A stretch of DNA of 9,530 bases from a virus. Lineage: Duplodnaviria; Heunggongvirae; Uroviricota; Caudoviricetes. The notes beneath the pieces were generated by a model that searched no databases, was not told the DNA's origin, and was given only the letters and a program-made list of their open reading frames with translations. Positions 1 through 9,530 of this stretch are shown one piece after another. The DNA is taken from the IMG/VR virus record IMGVR_UViG_2778261037_000010; one strand, given 5' to 3'. How positions within the stretch are numbered: the stretch's first letter is position 1; each line of letters begins with the position of its first letter. Position numbers and translations under genes: made by a program.

Positions 1-494
1 CCGAAATATCGATAACAGACGCTCTCTAGGGCATTGGGAGGGCGATTTAGTCTCAGGTACAAAAAACTCTCATATAGCCACACTTGTAGACCGAAAATCA
101 CGTTATACGATCATCCTCAGACTCAGGGGCAAAGATTCTGTCTCAGTAAATCAGGCTCTTACCGACAAATTCCTGAGTTTACCGTCAGAACTCAGAAAAT
201 CACTGACATGGGACAGAGGAATGGAACTGGCCAGACATCTAGAATTTACTGTCAGCACCGGCGTTAAAGTTTACTTCTGCGATCCTCAGAGTCCTTGGCA
301 GCGGGGAACAAATGAGAACACAAATGGGCTAATTCGGCAGTACTTTCCTAAAAAGACATGTCTTGCCCAATATACTCAACATGAACTAGATCTGGTTGCT
401 GCTCAGCTAAACAACAGACCGAGAAAGACACTGAAGTTCAAAACACCGAAAGAGATAATTGAAAGGGGTGTTGCATTGACAGATTGAATCTACA
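1..494 (+). mobile_element. IS30 insertion sequence, right-hand portion (window begins inside the element); right terminal inverted repeat ends at 494
   Basis: Seen: frame starting at position 2 is open to the TGA at 485-487 and translates to ...GHWEGDLVSGTKNSHIATLVDRKSRYTIILRL...YFCDPQSPWQRGTNENTNGLIRQYFPKK...RPRKTLKFKTPKEIIERGVALTD, which I recognise as the C-terminal DDE region of the IS30 transposase. The last bases (483-494, ATTGAATCTACA) are the reverse complement of TGTAGATTCAAT, which I recall as the IS30 terminal inverted repeat start. Established knowledge: IS30 family organisation. Exact end is an inference. Confidence 0.85.
2..487 (+). CDS. insI: IS30 transposase, 5'-truncated by the window edge (C-terminal ~161 codons present)
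   Basis: Continuous open frame from position 2 to stop at 485-487; protein motifs as above. The ORF track splits it only because it requires a Met (34..267 is off-frame, 221..487 is an internal Met of this frame). Confidence 0.9.
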   Translation, partial: RNIDNRRSLGHWEGDLVSGTKNSHIATLVDRKSRYTIILRLRGKDSVSVNQALTDKFLSLPSELRKSLTWDRGMELARHLEFTVSTGVKVYFCDPQSPWQRGTNENTNGLIRQYFPKKTCLAQYTQHELDLVAAQLNNRPRKTLKFKTPKEIIERGVALTD

Positions 495-761
495 AGTGCC
501 TTTTTCTGTCAGCGGTTCTCCTTTCCAGCCAATGAGAACCGTCAGGCGCGCGCCCCGTGGCGGTAGCTGCAACTGACCATCTGCATCATCCAGCGTGATG
601 GTGAGCTGGTCCGCCTCAAATCCCCGGTTGTCGGTCAGTGACAGGCTCATCAGGCGCTCTGCCACGCCTGACAGCGTTTTACCCTCCGCGAGAATATCAA
701 AATCCGGCACTTTCACGTGGTCTGTGCCCTGACTGAGCAATTGCATGGTGGTGTCGGTCAT
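495..761 (-). pseudogene. D: P2 gpD-family tail protein (late control gene D), N-terminal ~89 codons only; interrupted by the IS30 insertion at 494/495
   Basis: Seen: minus-strand ATG at 761..759 preceded by GGGAGGG (5 nt spacing); translation MTDTTMQLLSQGTDHVKVPDFDILAEGKTLSGVAERLMSLSLTDNRGFEADQLTITLDDADGQLQLPPRGARLTVLIGWKG... has the motif pattern I associate with the phage gpD family. The frame then runs into IS30 sequence and stops at 438. Full gpD proteins are ~380-390 aa, so this is a fragment. Confidence 0.75.
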
Positions 762-918
762 CTGTTCCCTCCCTGTGCGGCATGGTCGCATGTGCGTGCG
801 GAGGGGGTTACTGCTTTTTGTTGTCGCCGTGGCGGGAGAACGGCGCAGGGGTGAGATTACGCGCGTGGTGGGTGATGATTGTTGCCGAATCATTTAACGG
901 ATACAAGGGGCTGAAGCT

Positions 919-2103
919 ATGAGTGAAACTCGTTTTCATGGTGCCCGTGTTACGGAAAGTACCGACCTGGTAACAGCGATTAATGATGTTGATTCCAGTG
1001 TTATCGGTATCGTGGCAACGGCAGATGATGCGGACGCGGAGCTGTTCCCGCTGAACAAGCCCACACTGCTGACCCGCGTCAATGACGTGCTGGGAAAATG
1101 CGGGACTACGGGGACGCTTTATCGTGCGCTTAAGGCTATCGCAGACCAGGTGAGCACAAAAGTGATCGTCGTTCGCGTGGCTGAACACAAAGAAGAAGGC
1201 GGTAAGACGCAGGATCAACTGGTTATCGGTGGTTCTGAATCTGACGGCAGCTATACGGGGATGTATGCGCTGCTTGTTGCAGAGCAGGATGAAAGCATCG
1301 GATACCGTCCGCGTATTCTGGCCGCGCCGGAGCTGGACACGGAGGCGGTAACAAAATCCCTGTGCGTGATTGCGGGTAAACTGCGCGCGTTTGTGTATGC
1401 CACATGTCATGGTTGTAACACGATGGCTGAGGCGATTACCTACCGCCAGAAATTCAACGAACGTGAGGTGATGCTCTTATGGCCTGACTTCATCGCCTAC
1501 AACCTGAAAAGTGGCAAAAACGAAACGTTCCCCGCGCCTGCTTATGCGTGCGGCCTTCGTGCGTACATTGACCATGAGCAGGGCTGGCACAAATCGCTGT
1601 CCAACGTTCCGGTTAAAAATGTGCTTGGGATGTCGAGGCATGTGTTCTGGTCGTTGCAGGCCGAAGACAGTGATGCCAACAGCCTCAACAACAAAGAAAT
1701 CACGACCATTATTCGTCGCAACGGGTTCCGCTTCTGGGGCAACCGCACACCGGAAACGAACGCCTACATCTTTGAGGTGTATACCCGAACCGCACAGGTG
1801 CTGGCTGATTCAATTGCGGAAGCGCAGTTTGAAACCATCGACAGTCCACTGACACCTGCGAACGTGAAGGATGTTATCAGTGCCATCAGGGCAAAACTGG
1901 ATTCACTGGTTACTGCCGGGAAACTGATTGGCGCGGAGTGCTGGTATGACATCGAGGATAACAGCACCACGAATTTACGTCAGGGGCGTGTGCGTATTCG
2001 CTACAAATATACGCCCGTTCCTCCGCTGGAAGACATGGAGCTTTACCAGTCGTTTACTGATGAATTCTTTGGTCCCGCATTTGCGGTGCTGGGAGGTGCC
2101 TGA
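919..2103 (+). CDS. FI: Contractile tail sheath protein (P2 gpFI family)
   Basis: 394-aa ORF; ATG 919 with AAGGGG 8 nt upstream. Length and C-terminal motif ...RYKYTPVPPLEDMELYQ... fit the P2 FI sheath family from memory. First gene of the conserved FI-FII-E-T-U order. Stop TGA overlaps the FII start (TGATG). Confidence 0.9.
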   Translation: MSETRFHGARVTESTDLVTAINDVDSSVIGIVATADDADAELFPLNKPTLLTRVNDVLGKCGTTGTLYRALKAIADQVSTKVIVVRVAEHKEEGGKTQDQLVIGGSESDGSYTGMYALLVAEQDESIGYRPRILAAPELDTEAVTKSLCVIAGKLRAFVYATCHGCNTMAEAITYRQKFNEREVMLLWPDFIAYNLKSGKNETFPAPAYACGLRAYIDHEQGWHKSLSNVPVKNVLGMSRHVFWSLQAEDSDANSLNNKEITTIIRRNGFRFWGNRTPETNAYIFEVYTRTAQVLADSIAEAQFETIDSPLTPANVKDVISAIRAKLDSLVTAGKLIGAECWYDIEDNSTTNLRQGRVRIRYKYTPVPPLEDMELYQSFTDEFFGPAFAVLGGA

Positions 2104-2615
2104 TGGCTGTACCAAAACATCTTCGCTTTTTTACGCTGTTTGTGGATGGTGAAAACGAAGTGGGTAAGGTGACGTCCGTCACCCTGCCTAAACTGACGCG
2201 CAAAACCGACAGCTACCGGGGTGGTGGCATGATGGGTGCGGTAAGTATTGACCTCGGCCTGGACGACTCCGCGCTTGATGCGAGCTTTGTCATGGGGGGC
2301 GCAGTTCGTGAGCTGTTCCTGAAGTATGGCGGCACGATTGACGGCACGCTACTGCGTTTTGCGGGGGAATACTACACCGATGATGAAAGCGACCTGTATG
2401 AAGTCGAAATGCGCGGACGTGTGACGGAAATTGATATGGGGGAAGCCAAACAGGGCGAAGCCACATCACACACTTACGCCATTAAAAACACCTACTACAA
2501 GCTGAGTGTTAACGATCGCCCGTTGTGGGAGATTGACCTGCTGAACTTCATTTACCGGAAGGACGGCAAGGACATTGTGCCCGATCGCATCCGTTCCGCG
2601 CTTGGGCTTGGCTGA
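2103..2615 (+). CDS. FII: Tail tube protein (P2 gpFII family)
   Basis: 170-aa ORF starting in the TGATG overlap with FI; GGGAGG 6 nt upstream; size and position directly after the sheath gene match P2 FII (about 170 aa). Confidence 0.9.
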   Translation: MAVPKHLRFFTLFVDGENEVGKVTSVTLPKLTRKTDSYRGGGMMGAVSIDLGLDDSALDASFVMGGAVRELFLKYGGTIDGTLLRFAGEYYTDDESDLYEVEMRGRVTEIDMGEAKQGEATSHTYAIKNTYYKLSVNDRPLWEIDLLNFIYRKDGKDIVPDRIRSALGLG

Positions 2616-2627
2616 TAAGTAATATGC

Positions 2628-2648
2628 AGGCGGCGCAGTGCGTCGCCT
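2628..2648 (+). other. GC-rich intercistronic hairpin between FII and E (9-bp stem AGGCGGCGC / GCGTCGCCT with one G-U pair, 3-nt loop), no U-tract
   Basis: Seen directly in sequence; function (partial attenuator or mRNA stability element) is inference. Confidence 0.4.
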
Positions 2649-2669
2649 CTGACTGAAAGGAGTTTCCTG

Positions 2670-3035
2670 ATGAAAGAGACGAAAAACATCGATACCGAAA
2701 ACACGGTAGTTACTGACACTGTGAAAGAAACCAGTGAGCGTGGTGTAAAACTTACCCAACCAATTGAGCGAGGCGGCGAAAAAATCACGTATGTGGAGAT
2801 CACCGGGGCTATTGAGCAGGCTGGATCTCTGCGAGATTTGTCGCTGTCTGATGTGCTGAATCTGAAAGCGGAATCCATGTTTACGCTGCTGTCACGCGTG
2901 ACATCACCGCGACTGGATGAAGTGACGATCAAAAAAATGGCATCCCGTGACTTTATTCAGTTATGTGTGGTTGCCGTAAATTTTTTGAGCGGTGCGGACT
3001 CTGGCGGGAAGAACGAACAGGCGACGGAAGCCTGA
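2670..3035 (+). CDS. E: Tail assembly chaperone gpE (zero-frame product)
   Basis: 121-aa ORF, ATG 2670 with GAAAGGAG 8 nt upstream; located between tube and tape measure genes as in P2; contains the slippery heptamer near its 3' end. Confidence 0.85.
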   Translation: MKETKNIDTENTVVTDTVKETSERGVKLTQPIERGGEKITYVEITGAIEQAGSLRDLSLSDVLNLKAESMFTLLSRVTSPRLDEVTIKKMASRDFIQLCVVAVNFLSGADSGGKNEQATEA

Positions 3036-3199
3036 TCACGGTTGTGTGCTTTGAGCACATAGAAGACTTTGTGGCAGATATTGCCGTTATTTTTAACTGG
3101 TCGCCCGCCGAAATCTTCATGATGACGCCCGGCGAAGTGGTTAGCTGGCGTGAGCGGGCGGCACTTCGCAGCGGGAATGCAGACAATGAAGACTCTTGA
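2670..3199 (+). CDS. E+E': gpE+E' fusion produced by programmed -1 translational frameshift at 2981-2987 (frame of E to 2987, then -1 frame to stop at 3197-3199)
   Basis: Seen: T TTT TTG heptamer at 2981-2987 in the E frame; the -1 frame is open from there to 3199 (ORF-track protein ...FFERCGLWREERTGDGS...). Established knowledge: P2 and relatives make E and E+E' through a -1 shift on a TTTTTTG site, analogous to lambda G/GT. Confidence 0.7.
2981..2987 (+). promoter_or_regulatory. -1 ribosomal frameshift slippery site TTTTTTG
   Basis: Exact heptamer in the correct codon phase (T TTT TTG) for tandem tRNA slippage; downstream -1 frame open for ~70 codons. Confidence 0.7.
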
Positions 3200-5276
3200 T
3201 ATCCGGGTCGCTTTCAGCGCCGTTGACAGGCTGACCCGACCTGCCGAAAACGCACGCCGCCTGATGGGGCAGTTTGGTGACTCCATCCAGCGAACGCAGG
3301 GGGCGATCAAAAATCTCGAGCGTCAGGCGCGATCATTTGAGCGCGCCCGCGACGCTGTCAGTAAAGCGGATGCTGGCATCGTGAAAGCACGACGCCAGCT
3401 TAACGCCCTTAATCAGTTACAACGCACGGGTACAGTGCTCAGCGAAAAACAACAAAAGCTGATGCAGCAGTTAAGCACCCGGCTTGAACGCCTGAATGAA
3501 TCGCGCACACGGGAAATTCAGAAAATGAGGGAACTTGGCGGAGAGCTGAAACGCCACGGCATTTCCCTGACAGGCAGCGATAACACCATTCAGCAGGCCA
3601 TCAGACGCACCGAACAATACAACAACCAGCTTGAACGCGAACGGCAGGCGCTTGCGCGTGTAACGCAGGCGCGTGAGCGGTATTCGCACGCGCAGGAAAC
3701 CGCGGGAAAACTGAAAACAGGTGGTGCGCTGGCAATTGGTGCGGCAGCGGCGGGCGGCTATGCTGCCGGGCGTTTTTTGCAGCCTGCGATCGGGTTCGGC
3801 AAAGAGATGTCCCGCGTTCAGGCACTGACGCGAATCGACAAAAACAGCCCGCAGTTTAAGGCGCTGCGTGAGCAGGCGTTAAAACTTGCTGAAACACAGT
3901 TTACTGCGAGTGATGCCGCCAGTGGGCAGAGCTTTCTGGCAATGGCTGGTTTTACTCCGCAGGCCATTCAGGCCGCATTGCCCGGTGTTCTTAATATGGC
4001 GCTGGCAGGTGGCGTCGAACTCGGCGAGACGGCTGATATAGGCTCCAATATCCTCACACAGTTCAACCTGACAGCCGATCAAATGGACCGGGTGGGCGAT
4101 ACGCTGACAGCAGCATTTACCCGGACCAATACTGATTTACGCGCGCTGGGCGAAACCATGAAGTATACCGGTCCGGTTGCCGCAAAACTTGGTATCAGTC
4201 TTGAAGAAGCGGCGGCCATGGCCGGGATGCTTGCCAATAATGGTCTTCGCGGAAGCGATGCTGGCACGGCCATGCGCGCAAGTCTGTCCCGCCTTGCATC
4301 ACCGCCAAAAGCTGCGGCTGATGCACTGAAAGAGCTGGGGGTGTCAGTTGCTGACGCCAGAGGCAAAATGCGCCCGATGGAGGATGTGCTGCTTGATCTC
4401 TATAAGGCGACACAAAAATACGGACAGGTGGACCAGGTCTCCTTCTTCAAGGACATCGCCGGAGAAGAGGCGTTCGTTGGTTTGCAGACGCTTGTTGCGG
4501 CGGCTGGTTCAGGAGAGCTGCAAAAACTGACCAGAGAATTGCAGGGGGCAAGGGGAGAGGCCGATCGCGTCGCAAAAGTAATGGCTGATAATCTTGATGG
4601 GGACCTGAAAAATCTCGACAGCGCATGGGAAGGTCTTCGTATTCGCATCAGTGATCTGGTTGACGGTCCGCTGCGTTCTGTCACGCAGTGGCTCACGCGG
4701 GTGCTTGAAAAAATCACCTCGCTGGCGCAGGCCCATCCGGTACTGACGCGCCAGCTACTGATAGCAGGCGGTGCGTTGCTGGCAATGACTGCAACGATTG
4801 GCTCGTTGTCGCTGGTTATTGGGGTGCTTTACGGGAAGCTGGCCACCCTGCGTCTTGGTTTTGACATTCTTACCCGGTCAATGAATGTCGTCAGGGTGTT
4901 ACCTGCGCTATGGGGAATGGTGACGGGTTCCGTTTCTTTACTGGGAGGCGTTATCGGGGCGTTGTTCAGTCCGGTTGGTCTTATCGTGGCTGCGCTTGCC
5001 GGAGCTGCCGTTCTTATCTGGAAATACTGGGATCCTATCAGGGCTTTCTTTGCCGGGGTGTTCAGCGGGATTATGGAAAGGCTGACCCCGTTGCGCGACA
5101 CCTTTGAACGGTTTGGCCCTGTTTTTGACGTAATCGGAAGCGGTTCAGCCAGGTGTTTAACTGGTTTAAATCGCTGCTGTCACCGATGGAGTCCAGCAAG
5201 GAAACGCTGGATAAATGTACCAGTGCTGGCGAGGTATTCGGTAACGTTCTTGGTGGTGCGTTACAGCTTGTTCTGA
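3186..5276 (+). CDS. T: Tail tape measure protein gpT, upstream reading frame (frame is lost near 5144; see findings). Start uncertain: ATG 3186 preferred, alternatives ATG 3177 and GTG 3150
   Basis: Long ORF directly after E/E'; coiled-coil-like N-terminal half rich in Q/R/E/L/A, Gly/Ala-rich and hydrophobic stretches (…LLIAGGALLAMTATIGSLSLVIGVLYG…) typical of tape measure proteins. Start 3186 overlaps the end of E'. Confidence 0.85.
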   Translation: MKTLDIRVAFSAVDRLTRPAENARRLMGQFGDSIQRTQGAIKNLERQARSFERARDAVSKADAGIVKARRQLNALNQLQRTGTVLSEKQQKLMQQLSTRLERLNESRTREIQKMRELGGELKRHGISLTGSDNTIQQAIRRTEQYNNQLERERQALARVTQARERYSHAQETAGKLKTGGALAIGAAAAGGYAAGRFLQPAIGFGKEMSRVQALTRIDKNSPQFKALREQALKLAETQFTASDAASGQSFLAMAGFTPQAIQAALPGVLNMALAGGVELGETADIGSNILTQFNLTADQMDRVGDTLTAAFTRTNTDLRALGETMKYTGPVAAKLGISLEEAAAMAGMLANNGLRGSDAGTAMRASLSRLASPPKAAADALKELGVSVADARGKMRPMEDVLLDLYKATQKYGQVDQVSFFKDIAGEEAFVGLQTLVAAAGSGELQKLTRELQGARGEADRVAKVMADNLDGDLKNLDSAWEGLRIRISDLVDGPLRSVTQWLTRVLEKITSLAQAHPVLTRQLLIAGGALLAMTATIGSLSLVIGVLYGKLATLRLGFDILTRSMNVVRVLPALWGMVTGSVSLLGGVIGALFSPVGLIVAALAGAAVLIWKYWDPIRAFFAGVFSGIMERLTPLRDTFERFGPVFDVIGSGSARCLTGLNRCCHRWSPARKRWINVPVLARYSVTFLVVRYSLF

Positions 5277-5989
5277 CGCCTGCAAAAATGTTGCTGGATA
5301 CGCTGGCGTGGATACTTGAAAAACTCGGTGTGCTTCCGGATGAAGCGGAAAGGGCGCGCAAGAAAATCGAAGACGCACAACGTGCGGCCATTCTTCAGGA
5401 CAAGGTTGCTCTGTTTCAGGGAGACATTGCGAAAATCAATCCGCCGAAGTCTGCGGGAAATAGCAATGGCACCGGAGATGATAAACCCAAAGACAACAAA
5501 CCTCTCACAGACAGCAATACCGGCACGCTACGCAGACTCAGCAAAATTGCTGATAACACAGGTAAGCTGGTTGATGAGACAAAAAAACGCATTGGCCCCG
5601 GCGATATTGTCTTTAAGAACCTGCCCCGCGCACTTGCTGTTCGTGGGGAGTGGCAGGAGCGGAAGATTGCGCAGGTCAGTAAGCCTGCCCCCGCAATTAA
5701 TATCACACCCGTGGTCCCGGCTCCGCTGCCTCCGGCGCTGGTCCCTGTTGTTGCGGCCAGCTCCCGCCCGGTGGTGGAGGCCATACGATCGCCAGTGGCA
5801 TCAGTTCCTGCAACTTCCCGTAACCGGGAGCCTGTTGCCTCCGGATTTGGCGGTGAAATTCATGTTCATCTGCATAACGTTGTTACGCAGAATCCCCGCG
5901 AACTGGCGAAACTGGTCGGCGAAATGGTCAGGGCAGAAATGGAACGGCGCGCCCGTGCCAGGCGTGGCAGTTTTTACGATAAAGATTGA
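5153..5989 (+). CDS. T: Tail tape measure protein gpT, downstream reading frame (C-terminal ~280 codons, in the -1 frame relative to the upstream part)
   Basis: Frame open from 5129 to TGA 5987-5989; translation ...FSQVFNWFKSLLSPMESSKETL...GGEIHVHLHNVVTQNPRELAKLVGEMV... continues tape-measure-like sequence and ends immediately before U, as expected for the 3' end of T. Confidence 0.8.
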   Translation: MFNWFKSLLSPMESSKETLDKCTSAGEVFGNVLGGALQLVLTPAKMLLDTLAWILEKLGVLPDEAERARKKIEDAQRAAILQDKVALFQGDIAKINPPKSAGNSNGTGDDKPKDNKPLTDSNTGTLRRLSKIADNTGKLVDETKKRIGPGDIVFKNLPRALAVRGEWQERKIAQVSKPAPAINITPVVPAPLPPALVPVVAASSRPVVEAIRSPVASVPATSRNREPVASGFGGEIHVHLHNVVTQNPRELAKLVGEMVRAEMERRARARRGSFYDKD

Positions 5990-5995
5990 GGAGTC

Positions 5996-6490
5996 ATGGC
6001 CATGATGATGATCTACGGCATGTTTGTTTTTGAGCTGCGCACGTTGCCGCATCAGCAGTTACAGCAAAACAAAAGCTGGCGACATGTGAAAAATGAACGC
6101 GTTAACCGTTCAGCAAGCTGGCAGTATATCGGTGCAGGTGATGATCGCATCGTTCTTTCTGGTGTTCTTTATCCTGAGATTACTGGTGGCGAAGTGTCGC
6201 TGTCGTTGTTGACCACGCAGGCATATACAGGACGTCCTTGGCCTTTGATTGATGGCGTCGGGCAGATTTACGGCATGTATGTCCTGACCGGAACGAATAC
6301 GACCCGCTCCGAGTTTGATCGCTACGGTAAGGCGAAAAAGATAGAATTTTCACTGACTCTTGAACGCTGTGATGAGGATTTGCGGGAGCGCCTGCAATCC
6401 TCATCGTTCAGCGATATGCTGTCCGGCTTCAAAGATAAGGTGACATCATCCCTTAATAGCGCGGCCAGCTCAGTTAAGGGGCTGCTCTGA
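5996..6490 (+). CDS. U: Tail protein gpU (P2 U family)
   Basis: 164-aa ORF following T; N-terminus MAMMMIYGMFVFELRT... and ...YPEITGG...WPLIDG... motifs fit the P2 gpU family as I recall it. GAGGAG at 5988-5993 favours the ATG at 6002 (8 nt spacing) over 5996, so the true start may be 6002. Confidence 0.85.
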   Translation: MAMMMIYGMFVFELRTLPHQQLQQNKSWRHVKNERVNRSASWQYIGAGDDRIVLSGVLYPEITGGEVSLSLLTTQAYTGRPWPLIDGVGQIYGMYVLTGTNTTRSEFDRYGKAKKIEFSLTLERCDEDLRERLQSSSFSDMLSGFKDKVTSSLNSAASSVKGLL

Positions 6491-6566
6491 TTTAACGTAT
6501 GTCGCCAATTTCCTGATGAAGGTGACTGGCGACTTGCTGTTGTATGTCCTTCTCAGAAAATTGTTT

Positions 6567-6595
6567 TTGAATAACAAATAACAGGATTTTATAAT
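6567..6595 (+). promoter_or_regulatory. Putative sigma70 promoter for the acetyltransferase moron: TTGAAT (6567-6572), 17-nt spacer, TATAAT (6590-6595)
   Basis: Seen: near-consensus -35 and perfect -10 hexamers with 17-bp spacing, ~50 bp upstream of the moron start codon in an AT-rich region. Prediction only. Confidence 0.5.
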
Positions 6596-6646
6596 CTCTT
6601 AACCTTATAACATGTGTGGTCTGAAATAATAATTAAGGAGATTATC

Positions 6647-7219
6647 GTGCTATCTTACTTAATGGCAATTCACTTTGTTTTATTTGGAAACTCTACTAAT
6701 TTAAAAAACTTCTGGAAACATGAAGTAATTCGGCGGAAACGTATGGATATCTGGAGGCTTTTAAGAGAGAAAAAGCAGCGTAACCGGAATTTCCTTTTCT
6801 GGTGGCGGTTGGCTAACGAAATGTATATTAATGGTAATAAATTACATAAGAAAGCAGCCAAAAAGTTAAACAGTAAAATAATTAACAAGTTTGGTTGTGA
6901 AATAGGATTGGGCGCAAATATTGGAAAAGGGTTGACAATTCCCCATCATGCTGGAATTGTTGTTCATTTTGCTGTTGATGCGGGTGAAAATCTGGTATTA
7001 CGACAGAATACTACCATTGGACAGATAGATGGTGATATGCCTAGTTCAAGAGTAAAAATTGGTAGTAACGTTGATATCGGAGCTAATTGTTGCATCATTG
7101 GATTATCACGTAAAATTGGGGATAATGTAAAAATAGGTGCAATGTCTTTTATAAATAAAGATATACCATCAAACTGCACATATATAACTAAAAAGAGTGG
7201 TGTTGTATTGTATAAATAG
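6647..7219 (+). CDS. Hexapeptide-repeat (left-handed beta-helix) acetyltransferase, serine acetyltransferase-like CysE/WcaB/NeuO family; AT-rich moron
   Basis: Seen: GTG 6647 with AAGGAG 6 nt upstream (the ORF track starts at an upstream GTG 6614; ATG 6662 is a further alternative). Protein has imperfect hexapeptide repeats (GCEIGLGANIGKGLTIPHHAGIVV, VKIGSNVDIGANCCIIG, IGDNVKIGAMSFINKD) after a basic N-terminal region, the pattern of CysE/WcaB-type O-acetyltransferases. Composition is clearly more AT-rich than the flanking tail genes. Confidence 0.75.
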   Translation: MLSYLMAIHFVLFGNSTNLKNFWKHEVIRRKRMDIWRLLREKKQRNRNFLFWWRLANEMYINGNKLHKKAAKKLNSKIINKFGCEIGLGANIGKGLTIPHHAGIVVHFAVDAGENLVLRQNTTIGQIDGDMPSSRVKIGSNVDIGANCCIIGLSRKIGDNVKIGAMSFINKDIPSNCTYITKKSGVVLYK

Positions 7220-7228
7220 AGTACATAA

Positions 7229-7267
7229 AGCCATCGATATTTCTGTCGATGGCTTTTTCTTTTTATT
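7229..7267 (+). terminator. Rho-independent terminator (stem AGCCATCGA / TCGATGGCT, 8-nt loop, then TTTTTCTTTTTATT); probably serves the convergent tfa gene as well
   Basis: Seen: perfect 9-bp stem at 7229-7237 and 7246-7254 followed by a T-run. It lies between the convergent ends of the acetyltransferase gene (7219) and tfa (stop 7263-7265). Confidence 0.7.
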
Positions 7268-7841
7268 GTGGGGCGACTGGCCACTCAACATCCGCTGCTA
7301 CTGTTGTATCAACACGATTCAACAATACCCGATATGTCTTCCATGCAGCCAGTAACGATGCCTCTTCCTCCGTCGCAATATCCAAATCTACGGCATCCTG
7401 AAGTGGCGCAATATGCTCACTGGCTACCTGCATCAGGCTGTTTTTTGTTTCTTCTGCCTCCCGTACCCGAAACAGTTTTTCTGCTTCTGCATCTTTCGCC
7501 CAGGATGTGCCGTTCCACTTCTGACACTCTCCATCCGGCGACAACCAGGTAACATTTTCCGGTAACGGACCGAGTTCAGAAATAAATAACGCGTCGCCGG
7601 AAGCCACGTCATAAACCGTTTTACCCCGATGATCTTCAACGAGATGCCACGATGACTCATCACTGTTGAAAACAGCCACGAAGCCAGCCGGAATATCTGG
7701 CGGTGCAATATAGGTACTGTTTGCTGGCAGACCTGTATGAGGCGGAATATATGCGTCACCTTCACCAATAAATTCATTAGTTCCGGTCAGCAGATTATAA
7801 ATTTTTATGGTCCGTGGTTGTTCACTCATTCTGAATGCCAT
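7263..7841 (-). CDS. tfa: Tail fibre assembly protein (lambda Tfa / P2 gpG family)
   Basis: 192-aa minus-strand ORF; N-terminus [42 protein letters not shown]... is the lambda-Tfa-type sequence I recognise. Its ATG overlaps the stop of the upstream fibre gene (TAATG), typical translational coupling. Confidence 0.9.
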
Positions 7842-9453
7842 TATGCAAGCCTCACAATGTAGTTAAATGCGATGTTTTTGACAGTGTTTTCCGCGTTACC
7901 CGCAGCGTTAACGGTGATGGTGTGTCCATGTGAGCCAATCGCAACAGAGTGCGTATGAGCACCAATACCGACAGTATGTGCGTGAGCACCTGCAGATGCA
8001 GCTGTGCCGCTGACACTATGAGTGTGCGCTCCTGCAGCACTTGTATTCACACTGGCCGCAGACACTACCTTATGTACTGACCCATTTTGTGACCACTGGC
8101 TGACTGCTGATGCGCCTGTGACACTATGAGTATGGTTTCCGGCACTTGCGGCTGTACCGCTCACACTGTGCGTGTGCGCCCCGGTGTTATTCGTGGATTT
8201 AGTGCCGTAATCAAACGACGATGTGGTTTTCGTCCCCAAATCCGTACTGGATGCGCTGGCGCTGTGGGTGTGCGATTTAATGCCGTCCTGTTCCTGAGAC
8301 AATACGGCCCGACCACTGGCAGGTTTGCCCTTAATCGTCCAGCCACGCATATCAGGGATCACGCCTGACGGATAAGCGGCTGCAAGTTTCGGGTATGCAG
8401 ATTTGTCAAAAGTCTGCCCCTGCATCAGGGCATAGCCAGACGGAACGGTATCTGATGGCCACGGGATTGGTGCGCCAGGCGGATAAAACTGCTCTGATGG
8501 CGTATAGAGTGAATAAACTGTACCGTCCGTTAACCCTTCCGGCTTATTAGCAGAATATGCTGGTGACGTATGAATCGTCACGCTGGCATTACTGGTATAA
8601 TCCCATTGAATATTTACACCAGTCGCATAATTTCCGATTGCAACGTAAATATCGTAAGTATCACCAGATGTATTGACCCAGGCAAAATTTGTAAACCCTG
8701 TCGATGTGCGCTGCCATAAAGCACCAGTAATCCCCTTCGGATTACCATTACCTGCACGCAAAACAAGTTCAGATATACCTGCCTGTTGAGGTGACCCCAC
8801 GTTAAATCCCGCGCCACCAATCAACGTAATTGAAACAACAGAACTCGCCTGTGGCATGGTTACCGTTGCTAATTTGAACCAACCAGCACCACCGCTGAAT
8901 GACATTGTTGTTGAGTTAAGCGTACCAATATCTTTCGGCGTCAGTGTTATATCCGATGAAAGCGCCTTACCATTCACCTTACGGGCAGAAGGTACCCGAC
9001 CATTCGCATTATCATTAGCTGCTTTCACTGCTTTCGGTGTCGCGGCAAGCGTTTCAGATGCGCTGTTGGTTGCACTACTGAGCTGGACAATTCCTTTTTG
9101 TGCTGTCGTAGCGTCCTGAGCAGTATATTTCCCGTTAGCAAGGTCATAGGCTGCCTTTACCGACTTTGGCGTTGCCGCCAGCATTTCAGATGTGCTGTTG
9201 GTCGCGTTGCTAAGCTGAACTATCCCTTTCTGTGCTGTCGTTGCATCCTGTGCGGTGTATTTCCCGTTAGCCAGCTCATACGCGGCCTTAACGGCTTTTG
9301 GCGTTGCCGCCAGTGACTCGGAAGTGCTGTTAGTCGCACTGCTGAGCTGTACTATCCCCTTTTTCGTCGTGCTCGCATCCTCAAGCGCCACGGCGGATGC
9401 AATATCCTCTGCCCGTTTTGCCGCTGTCTCAGCGCGCGTTGCTGCAGATTCCG
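7841..9453 (-). pseudogene. stf: Side tail fibre protein (lambda Stf-like C-terminal part; P2 gpH equivalent), 5'-truncated by an IS3-family insertion at 9453/9454
   Basis: Seen: minus-strand frame open from the IS junction to TAA at 7843..7841; no plausible start (the ORF-track 'M' at 9391 is a GTG; the frame has an in-frame stop at 9481..9479 inside the IS end). Protein contains three tandem ~44-aa fibre repeats (…[32 protein letters not shown]…), His-rich HTHS repeats and the ending …[19 protein letters not shown], which match lambda Stf-type fibre C-termini as I recall them. Confidence 0.85.
8999..9391 (-). repeat. Three imperfect tandem copies of a ~132-bp unit inside the tail fibre gene (encode the 44-aa fibre repeat)
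   Basis: Seen at DNA level (e.g. ...TATTTCCCGTTAGC... recurring at 9126 and 9258; third copy about 8999-9124) and at protein level with period 44 aa. Confidence 0.8.
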
Positions 9454-9530
9454 TGAACCGCCCCGGAAATCCTGGAGACTAAACTCCCTGAGAAAGAGGT
9501 AAACAGGATGACTAAAAATACTCGTTTTTC
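9454..9530 (+). mobile_element. Left end of an IS3-family insertion sequence (resembles IS629/IS1203 from memory); continues beyond the window
   Basis: Seen: sequence from 9454 begins TGAACCGCCCCGG..., with an RBS (AGAGG) and ATG at 9508 opening MTKNTRF..., which I recognise as the start of the orfA product of IS629/IS1203-type IS3-family elements. The tail fibre frame breaks exactly here. Precise IS identity is a recollection, not a search result. Confidence 0.75.
9508..9530 (+). CDS. IS3-family transposase OrfA, first 7 codons only (3'-truncated by window edge)
   Basis: ATG at 9508 preceded by GAGAAAGAGG; translation MTKNTRF. Confidence 0.7.

Follow-up and report, generated by a model that had tools for sequence, protein, structure and literature searches.

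Introduction

In coliphage P2 the tail genes are expressed from the F promoter pF as one Ogr-dependent transcript in the order FI-FII-E-E'-T-U-D. The last gene of this F operon, D (22791-23954), follows U (22312-22791) on the same strand, and all of these genes are co-directional with V, W, J, I, H and G. Elsewhere in the P2 genome, two late units lie back to back about 150-170 nucleotides (nt) apart under the control of the divergent promoters pP and pO, with a single near-central dyad about 55 nt from each start. The GenBank record of P2 accordingly holds a single activator site (3057-3087) for both promoters as well as starts at 3016 and 3127, each about 55 nt from the centre of this site. 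Tail-related phage DNA in inverted orientation is likewise found in the G segment of Mu, the C segment of P1, the P segment of e14 and the fibre segment of P88, the last of these phages carrying an invertase beside the gene block which is of concern here. The present study deals with a stretch of virus DNA of 9,530 nt (IMG/VR record IMGVR_UViG_2778261037_000010, Caudoviricetes), hereinafter referred to as the window, in which the tail gene block from FI to U is encoded on the strand opposite to that of its neighbours on both sides, D and the fibre genes tfa and stf.

The window harbours a P2-type contractile-tail gene set consisting of FI, FII, E/E', T, U and D, as is evident from Pfam matches for sheath, tube, tape measure protein and GpU, a weak match for the tail assembly chaperone, and the RefSeq locus corresponding to the D fragment. 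D (495-761) and tfa/stf (7263-9453) occupy the minus strand and FI-FII-E-E'-T-U (919-6490) the plus strand. The start codon of D is located at 761-759 on the minus strand and a gap of 157 bp (762-918) separates it from FI. An earlier note on this DNA had described FI as divergent from D across this gap and U as convergent with tfa, and both the open reading frame (ORF) listing and the Pfam scans bear this description out. While the internal order from FI to U is that of P2, D is, compared to the P2 operon, detached from U and placed divergently upstream of FI, and the FI-U unit converges on the fibre genes.

Results

The split gene order in functional phages

The part of the window which comprises the remnant of D, the D/FI spacer and the genes FI through U (494-6496) aligns without any interruption to the genomes of isolated phages at 92-97% identity. 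With P88 a single alignment of 6016 columns is obtained (94.2%), identity to 500465-2 amounts to 96.8%, and further one-piece matches are provided by PhiR44_2, 520873, 503458, P884B11, Citrobacter phage Shae_phiSM and Chuche. In the annotated map of P88 one strand carries H, G, an inverted G'/H' segment (the invertible fibre segment) and a DNA invertase gene, after which U-T-E'-E-FII-FI follow on the opposite strand and D is again encoded on the first one. P88, a plaque former, was recovered through induction with mitomycin C (PMC5285337), while Citrobacter phage phiSM is released spontaneously, forms plaques and lysogenises its host (PMC6456863). Four further lineages are annotated with this gene order, namely Novemvirus (Enterobacter phage phiT5282H), Reipivirus (Klebsiella phage ST16-OXA48phi5.4), Senquatrovirus (Salmonella phage SEN5) and that of Serratia phage KSP20. 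The divergent arrangement of D and FI together with the location of FI-U on the opposite strand is the normal working gene order of the P88 group and neither a rearrangement nor an assembly error in the window. As such, this layout is already known, being plain in the deposited annotations of a phage group classified by the International Committee on Taxonomy of Viruses (ICTV). The papers on P88, phiSM and SEN4/5 make no mention of the split order, nor was any mention of it encountered in wider literature searches on Peduoviridae and P2-like inversion.

The closest counterparts of the window are found in the genus Xuanwuvirus (P88, 500465-2, PhiR44_2, P884B11, phiSM and Chuche), where the D/FI spacer, the gene order along with its strands, and the cargo slot after U are arranged identically. 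The window differs from P88 in that its copy is defective, with the insertion sequence (IS) IS30 in D and a frameshift in T, in that an acetyltransferase gene stands in place of the P88 invertase and its invertible fibre segment, and in that the fibre end is a lambdoid stf/tfa.

Misassembly of the block, against which the earlier note had advised some caution, would have nothing specific in its favour, although prophage regions in genomes of the O157 type are rich in repeats. The D/FI junction, however, is located within unique sequence and recurs in phage genomes as well as, independently, in hundreds of complete genomes. In addition, window positions 1-9453 are present at 100% identity in an independent IMG/VR contig (L169). 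We regard the probability of an assembly error as negligible.

Distribution of the split order

The same junctions, which the earlier note had proposed to look for in other genomes, were indeed retrieved from three collections. At least 80% of the window is present in one place in 516 of 5426 complete E. coli genomes. In IMG/VR, FI lies opposite to D in all 80 loci with a P88-type D, this set consisting of 80 of 492 relatives retrieved with the D protein of P88. GTDB was scanned with one genome per species and an alignment of four D proteins as query, by which 80 loci were returned. All 60 loci with a D identity to P88 of 61% or more are split, with U, FII and FI opposite to D and FI directly upstream of it, whereas in all 20 loci whose D shows an identity of at most 53% U is found directly upstream of D on the same strand. 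The 60 split loci span about 27 enterobacterial genera, including Salmonella, Klebsiella, Enterobacter, Citrobacter, Serratia, Erwinia, Pantoea, Pectobacterium, Brenneria, Edwardsiella, Hafnia, Yersinia, Providencia, Morganella, Xenorhabdus and Photorhabdus.

When a fused U+D query was compared by tblastn with 50,697 phage records, 521 of them gave a match. U and D are collinear in one place in 387 of these 521 records, which comprise P2-type coliphages as well as phages of Yersinia, Burkholderia, Ralstonia, Pseudomonas, Mannheimia and Xanthomonas. Among the matches listed, the records matching by D alone all show a D identity of at least 62%, and the collinear ones all show at most 51%. Since U and D are collinear in 387 records from phages of many hosts, the P2 order has to be considered the ancestral one. 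Within the clade characterised by a P88-type D, the collinear order was encountered in none of 140 loci (80 from IMG/VR and 60 from GTDB). No lineage contains both states, so that we are dealing with a fixed inversion and not with a switch. The split order tracks the phylogeny of the D protein and marks one derived enterobacterial clade.

The earlier note had attributed the layout to an event within this particular genome, i.e. to a recent inversion of about 5.7 kb in this bacterium or its near ancestors which started from a P2-ordered prophage. The block is, in fact, inverted with respect to P2, and the prophage has suffered other recent damage, namely the IS30 insertion in D, the frameshift in T and a recombinant tfa. 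A local event is refuted, however, by P88, phiSM and SEN5, along with phiT5282H, ST16-OXA48phi5.4 and KSP20, all of which display this layout. The junctions are shared by isolated functional phages, by the 516 E. coli genomes and by about 27 other genera down to a protein identity of about 60%, the collinear order is missing from all 140 loci of the P88-type D clade, and the boundaries feature neither repeats nor IS ends. A recent inversion is thus very improbable. What endures of the earlier view is the inverted orientation relative to the P2 map and the notion that the layout is explained most economically by an inversion, albeit an ancient one with one breakpoint between U and D and the other just ahead of the F promoter. 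The distribution points to one ancient inversion with respect to the P2 order, which became fixed across a clade of Enterobacterales and whose breakpoints would have been situated between U and D on the one side and just upstream of the F-promoter activator site on the other.

A contig labelled Vagococcus sp., a Gram-positive organism, was also found to contain a P88-type prophage region (L088). This region is 96-99% identical at the protein level to its E. coli counterpart and is probably the result of assembly contamination or mislabelling.

Boundaries of the inverted unit

Homology to P88-type phages stops at position 6496, six bases past the stop codon of U, which places the right edge of the inverted unit at 6491-6496. 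Its left edge is located between the start codon of D and the F-promoter activator site. This agrees with the left breakpoint at 762-918 given in the earlier note and narrows down the right one, for which 6491-6600 had been suggested, while the alternative at 7220-7262 has to be abandoned. Two further statements of that note hold true. Neither breakpoint coincides with the end of an IS, IS30 being located within D and IS1203 within stf, and a search of 762-918 against 6491-7262 disclosed no inverted repeats linking the boundaries. In view of the missing repeats, repeat-mediated and invertase-mediated mechanisms were dropped. An IS-mediated inversion was rejected as well: IS30 and IS1203 are different elements, neither of which is situated at a boundary, and IS-free phages possess the same layout.

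In P88 and in 27 of its about 56 close relatives a DNA invertase gene is located directly beside U, and invertases can occasionally use quasi-sites. One may thus imagine the block as an invertible switch which a site-specific invertase, for instance that of P88, turns over. However, no resolvase/invertase domain is detected by Pfam among the ORFs of the window, and no inverted-repeat crossover sites pair the two boundary regions. All of the 140 related loci exhibit the same orientation, and most genera with the split layout lack an invertase at the junction. In P88 itself the inverted block does not include the invertase gene, and the DNA on which this enzyme is known to act is the fibre segment (bioRxiv 10.1101/2022.05.07.487787). 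We consider a switch of this kind highly improbable. Its variant in which the P88 invertase acted via a quasi-site was rejected on account of the position of the gene outside the block, the lack of an invertase there in most genera and the single orientation. Compared to the Mu G, P1 C, e14 P and P88 fibre segments, the window features neither a recombinase nor crossover repeats, its block is seen in one orientation, and this block comprises 5.6 kb of structural tail genes instead of fibre tips.

The D/FI spacer as a putative bidirectional late promoter

The intergenic spacer between D and FI (762-918, assigned to neither strand), whose length and plan are conserved across relatives, is proposed to be a bidirectional late promoter region. 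We aligned 59 distinct D/FI spacer sequences from about 27 genera, which mostly measure 145-161 nt and follow a conserved plan. They share only one conserved dyad of 22 bp, the perfect form of which, present in relatives, reads GTTGTC-N10-GACAAC. In the window, the candidate dyad for an activator of the Ogr/Delta type is found at 820-841 (GTTGTCGCCGTGGCGGGAGAAC; assigned to neither strand), with a TGT-N12-AGA core at 822-839. The start codon of FI is 67-77 nt away from the right edge of the dyad and that of D 55-60 nt from its left edge, the latter distance amounting to 65-69 nt in a Morganellaceae/SEN5 subgroup. Outlying values (30-36, 82, 99 and 307 nt), which go back to wrong starts at a few loci, were left out of these ranges. 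Scoring of the whole P2 genome for the dyad returns only the annotated activator site of pF.

The position of the dyad upstream of FI corresponds to that of the activator dyad in the P2 F operon with the same offset, and so does the position of the -10 element. The candidate -10 hexamer of the FI promoter, GATGAT (874-879, plus strand), lies at an offset from the dyad which is identical in four genera, where GATGAT, GATTAT or GAATAT is present. At the equivalent offset P2 pF has GAAAAT, about 7 nt upstream of the mapped start. For D, GACCAT (782-787, minus strand) is a candidate -10 element at the mirror-image offset from the dyad, adjoining a GC-rich block at 788-801. On its D side, the D/FI spacer features a conserved motif family of the form GATTxCC-CGCGCGCG. 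This block recurs on the P (leftward) side of the P/O spacer of P88, phiT5282H and ST16-OXA48phi5.4. The P/O spacers of these three phages measure 154-159 nt and contain one central dyad, which in P88 is 62 and 70 nt away from the two start codons. No promoter-like site matching the sigma-70 consensus is present in 700-960. Nor does the window contain an ogr/Delta gene; an ogr/Delta-like gene is located downstream of D in a near-identical prophage (L001, 11340-11600) as well as in phiT5282H and ST16-OXA48phi5.4.

The following mechanism may be envisaged. The inversion would have set D back to back with the F promoter and left this gene, the last one of the F operon in P2, without an upstream operon. 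The spacer of about 150 nt could then act as a bidirectional late promoter, in which one Ogr/Delta-type dyad (820-841), about 55 nt from both starts, would switch on FI-U rightward and D leftward. Judging from the sequences compared, D/FI may represent a second bidirectional late promoter on one Ogr-type site, designed on the plan of P2 pP/pO. Taken as a whole, we consider this explanation highly probable, with a native split layout which stems from one ancient inversion and a D/FI spacer which would function as a bidirectional promoter with a shared activator.

Several observations weigh against this explanation. That the inversion was a single event is deduced from the clade distribution and not from a formal phylogeny. 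An exact search for TGT-N12-ACA yields one match in the window, which is located inside stf, and none in the spacer, the dyad of the window deviating by one mismatch (TGT-N12-AGA). The dyad of the spacer surfaced only through the comparative alignment, in which the relatives are perfect or symmetrically changed at the same aligned position. The case for the shared dyad is made from geometry and conservation, whereas the starts of pP and pO, to which D/FI is likened, are annotated in GenBank. Moreover, the -10 candidates on the D side are poor (3-4 of 6 consensus matches), with a start at -55 from the centre of the dyad the leader of D would measure only some 11-16 nt, and the bimodal spacing on the D side (55-60 and 65-69 nt) fits a strict single-site model less well.

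The weak -10 element, the bimodal spacing and the short predicted leader, all on the D side, would also be in line with a layout which is fixed for the clade but in which D and FI are served by two independent promoters without a shared activator site, D being transcribed either from an activator-independent promoter or along with downstream genes by another route. Furthermore, ogr of P2, situated just downstream of D, has its own sigma-70 promoter, meaning that the region tolerates independent promoters. On the other hand, the spacer holds a single conserved dyad and no sigma-70 consensus promoter. The distance between the D start and the dyad varies by only a few nt from genus to genus despite the drift of the sequence, and the D side shares the GC-rich block with the pP side of the P/O spacer. 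Independent promoters appear rather unlikely to us, though they are to be taken seriously.

Two further dyads deserve mention. In the D/FI spacers of two Providencia loci (L124 and L130) the dyad reads GTTCTC...GAGAAC, i.e. its half-sites are changed symmetrically (TGT to TCT and ACA to AGA), which is the pattern expected if a dimeric activator had co-evolved with its site. A second sequence closely resembling the D/FI dyad, GTGGTCGCTGGGCCGGGAGAAC, is located inside the lysis gene upstream of R, both in P88 (L002, 18642-18663) and in the near-identical prophage mentioned above (L001, 29811-29832). It may represent the late promoter for R-S-V-W-J-I-H-G in P88-type phages, in which V is not preceded by an intergenic gap.

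Origin and state of the prophage copy

Positions 1-7835 of the window are 99.86% identical to a prophage located beside the glyW-cysT-leuZ tRNA genes of E. coli O157 strain 493/89. In this prophage ogr and D, the latter interrupted by IS30, are encoded on the first strand, and FI-FII-E-E'-T-U together with the acetyltransferase gene on the opposite one. These are followed, back on the first strand, by tfa, the fibre gene, I, J, W, V, S, R, the lysis genes, X, L, M, N and O, with P and Q on the opposite strand. It thus possesses a full P88-type/P2-like gene set, and compared to the P2 map the FI-U unit alone departs from the textbook orientation. The window harbours the tail region of a decayed P88-like prophage of the Peduoviridae, belonging to Xuanwuvirus or a closely related genus, about 6 kb of which are contained in it.

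The left end of the window (1-494, plus strand) is formed by the right end of an IS30 element inserted in D, the terminal sequence of which (...GATTGAATCTACA) stops at 494. Of D, encoding the late control protein or baseplate hub, only the N-terminal 89 codons are present (495-761, minus strand), the matching RefSeq locus being annotated as a partial "phage late control D family protein". This stump is 96.7% identical to residues 1-90 of P88 D, as measured in the identical contig L169. The insertion after codon 89 is shared by strain 493/89, where the remainder of D is found beyond the IS. In that locus the coding sequence (CDS) of the IS30 transposase extends to the base corresponding to position 487 of the window, and next comes the D pseudogene.

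The inverted block begins with the tail sheath gene FI (919-2103; Pfam Phage_sheath_1, Gp18_domIII_N and Phage_sheath_1C) and the tail tube gene FII (2103-2615; Phage_tube, E = 1.3e-47), which like all of its genes are encoded on the plus strand. E with its frameshift extension E', encoding tail assembly chaperones, spans 2670-3199. Its match to Phage_TAC_7 is weak and below the Pfam cut-off, and the RefSeq locus records a "tail protein" at the equivalent of 2670-3035 and a "GpE family phage tail protein" at that of 3044-3199. The tape measure gene T (3186-5989; PhageMin_Tail) is split into two ORFs (3150-5276 and 5153-5989) by a frameshift. Compared to strain 493/89, one nucleotide is deleted near 5142 in a short run of G, and a further, in-frame deletion of 3 nt is located at about 3889. 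The single-nucleotide change may be a real pseudogene mutation or a sequencing error. The final gene of the block is U, which encodes a tail protein (5996-6490; Phage_P2_GpU, E = 1.5e-38).

The slot after U and the lambdoid fibre genes

Downstream of U, the plus strand contains a low-GC cargo gene (moron) for a hexapeptide-repeat acetyltransferase. The gene itself occupies 6614-7219 and, including a promoter-like site and a terminator, 6567-7256. According to the composition of the window its GC content is 0.34-0.38. The match to Hexapep is weak and below the Pfam cut-off, and RefSeq annotates the product as a serine O-acetyltransferase. The promoter-like sequence TTGAAT-17-TATAAT is located at 6567-6595 and a strong terminator at 7227-7256. 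The gene is not part of the inverted unit, as it has a promoter-like site and a terminator of its own, travels with tfa/stf and sits in a variable slot. Among the about 56 close relatives of P88 this slot is occupied by the acetyltransferase gene in 17 and by an invertase gene in 27, and about 12 have it empty. Outside this group of relatives, in other genera, the gap between the convergent tfa and U usually measures only 44-250 nt. The U/tfa gap of phiT5282H features a GC-rich hairpin terminator, while in that of SEN5 no terminator was detected. The convergent U/tfa junction may serve as a terminator zone and as a slot for cargo genes, accommodating the acetyltransferase here and the invertase in P88. 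The acetyltransferase-tfa-stf cassette is also encountered in the unrelated large phages JL22 and vB_EcoM-Ro157c2YLVW, and the acetyltransferase gene is a typical moron which is possibly involved in lysogenic conversion.

The fibre genes on the minus strand comprise a hybrid tfa, responsible for tail fibre assembly (7263-7841; Caudo_TAP), and the C-terminal part of a lambdoid side tail fibre gene, stf (7841-9453; Phage_fiber_2 and Collar), which is cut by IS1203, an element of the IS3 family whose end forms the right terminus of the window (9454-9530, plus strand). Positions 7570-9530, which include the 5' part of tfa, the C-terminal part of stf and the IS1203 junction, match, at 100% identity, a lambdoid prophage of O157:H7 strain 2571 which comprises J, lom, stf::IS1203 and tfa. 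Up to 7654, i.e. including the 3' part of tfa, the window is identical to the P88-like prophage of strain 493/89, so that the crossover must have taken place within tfa at 7570-7654. IS1203 interrupts stf at 9453/9454, exactly as it does in the lambdoid prophage of strains 2571 and F6321. Positions 9200-9530 match both strains at 100%, and in these strains the transposase gene of IS1203 comes next. In contig L169, stf is devoid of IS1203 and runs on into the lambdoid N-terminal domain of stf. The joint within tfa is absent from the complete E. coli genomes of our collection and was found at 100% in two IMG/VR contigs, L169 and L200. A probe of 101 nt designed to detect the recombinant tfa alone proved to represent a common allele, as it is present in 47 contigs, with the whole joint in only two of them. 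To judge from these identities, two prophages appear to have recombined within tfa, and the resulting joint may be the trace of a deletion or of a large-scale rearrangement of the chromosome.

The lambdoid nature of the right flank weakens an argument of the earlier note, according to which two independent flanks agree in their orientation and disagree with the block between them. The orientation as such stands, since the native H and G genes of intact relatives point in the same direction as the lambdoid stf/tfa.

Discussion

The gene order of the P88 group being known from its annotations, the hypothesis of a promoter with a shared dyad is the only element of this analysis which is mildly new. 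Should the gap in the literature be real, the novel claim would be that a single ancient inversion extending from the F promoter to U defines a large enterobacterial subclade of Peduoviridae, and that it was viable because one dyad-type Ogr site, once adjacent to D, could serve FI-U as well as the detached D as a bidirectional promoter. We put this forward tentatively, as a possibility slightly more open to doubt than to trust.

For the scanning of bacterial genomes, the results remove a false alarm: a tail operon which is inverted compared to the P2 map is normal for P88-type prophages, which are common, being present in about one tenth of complete E. coli genomes and occurring across Enterobacterales. 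The divergent D/FI arrangement as opposed to collinear U-D provides a simple synteny marker, by which P88-type and P2-type peduoviruses are separated without exception in the 140 related loci. With respect to late gene control, the D/FI spacer offers a testable model in which one activator site may serve two divergent late units twice per genome, at P/O and at D/FI.

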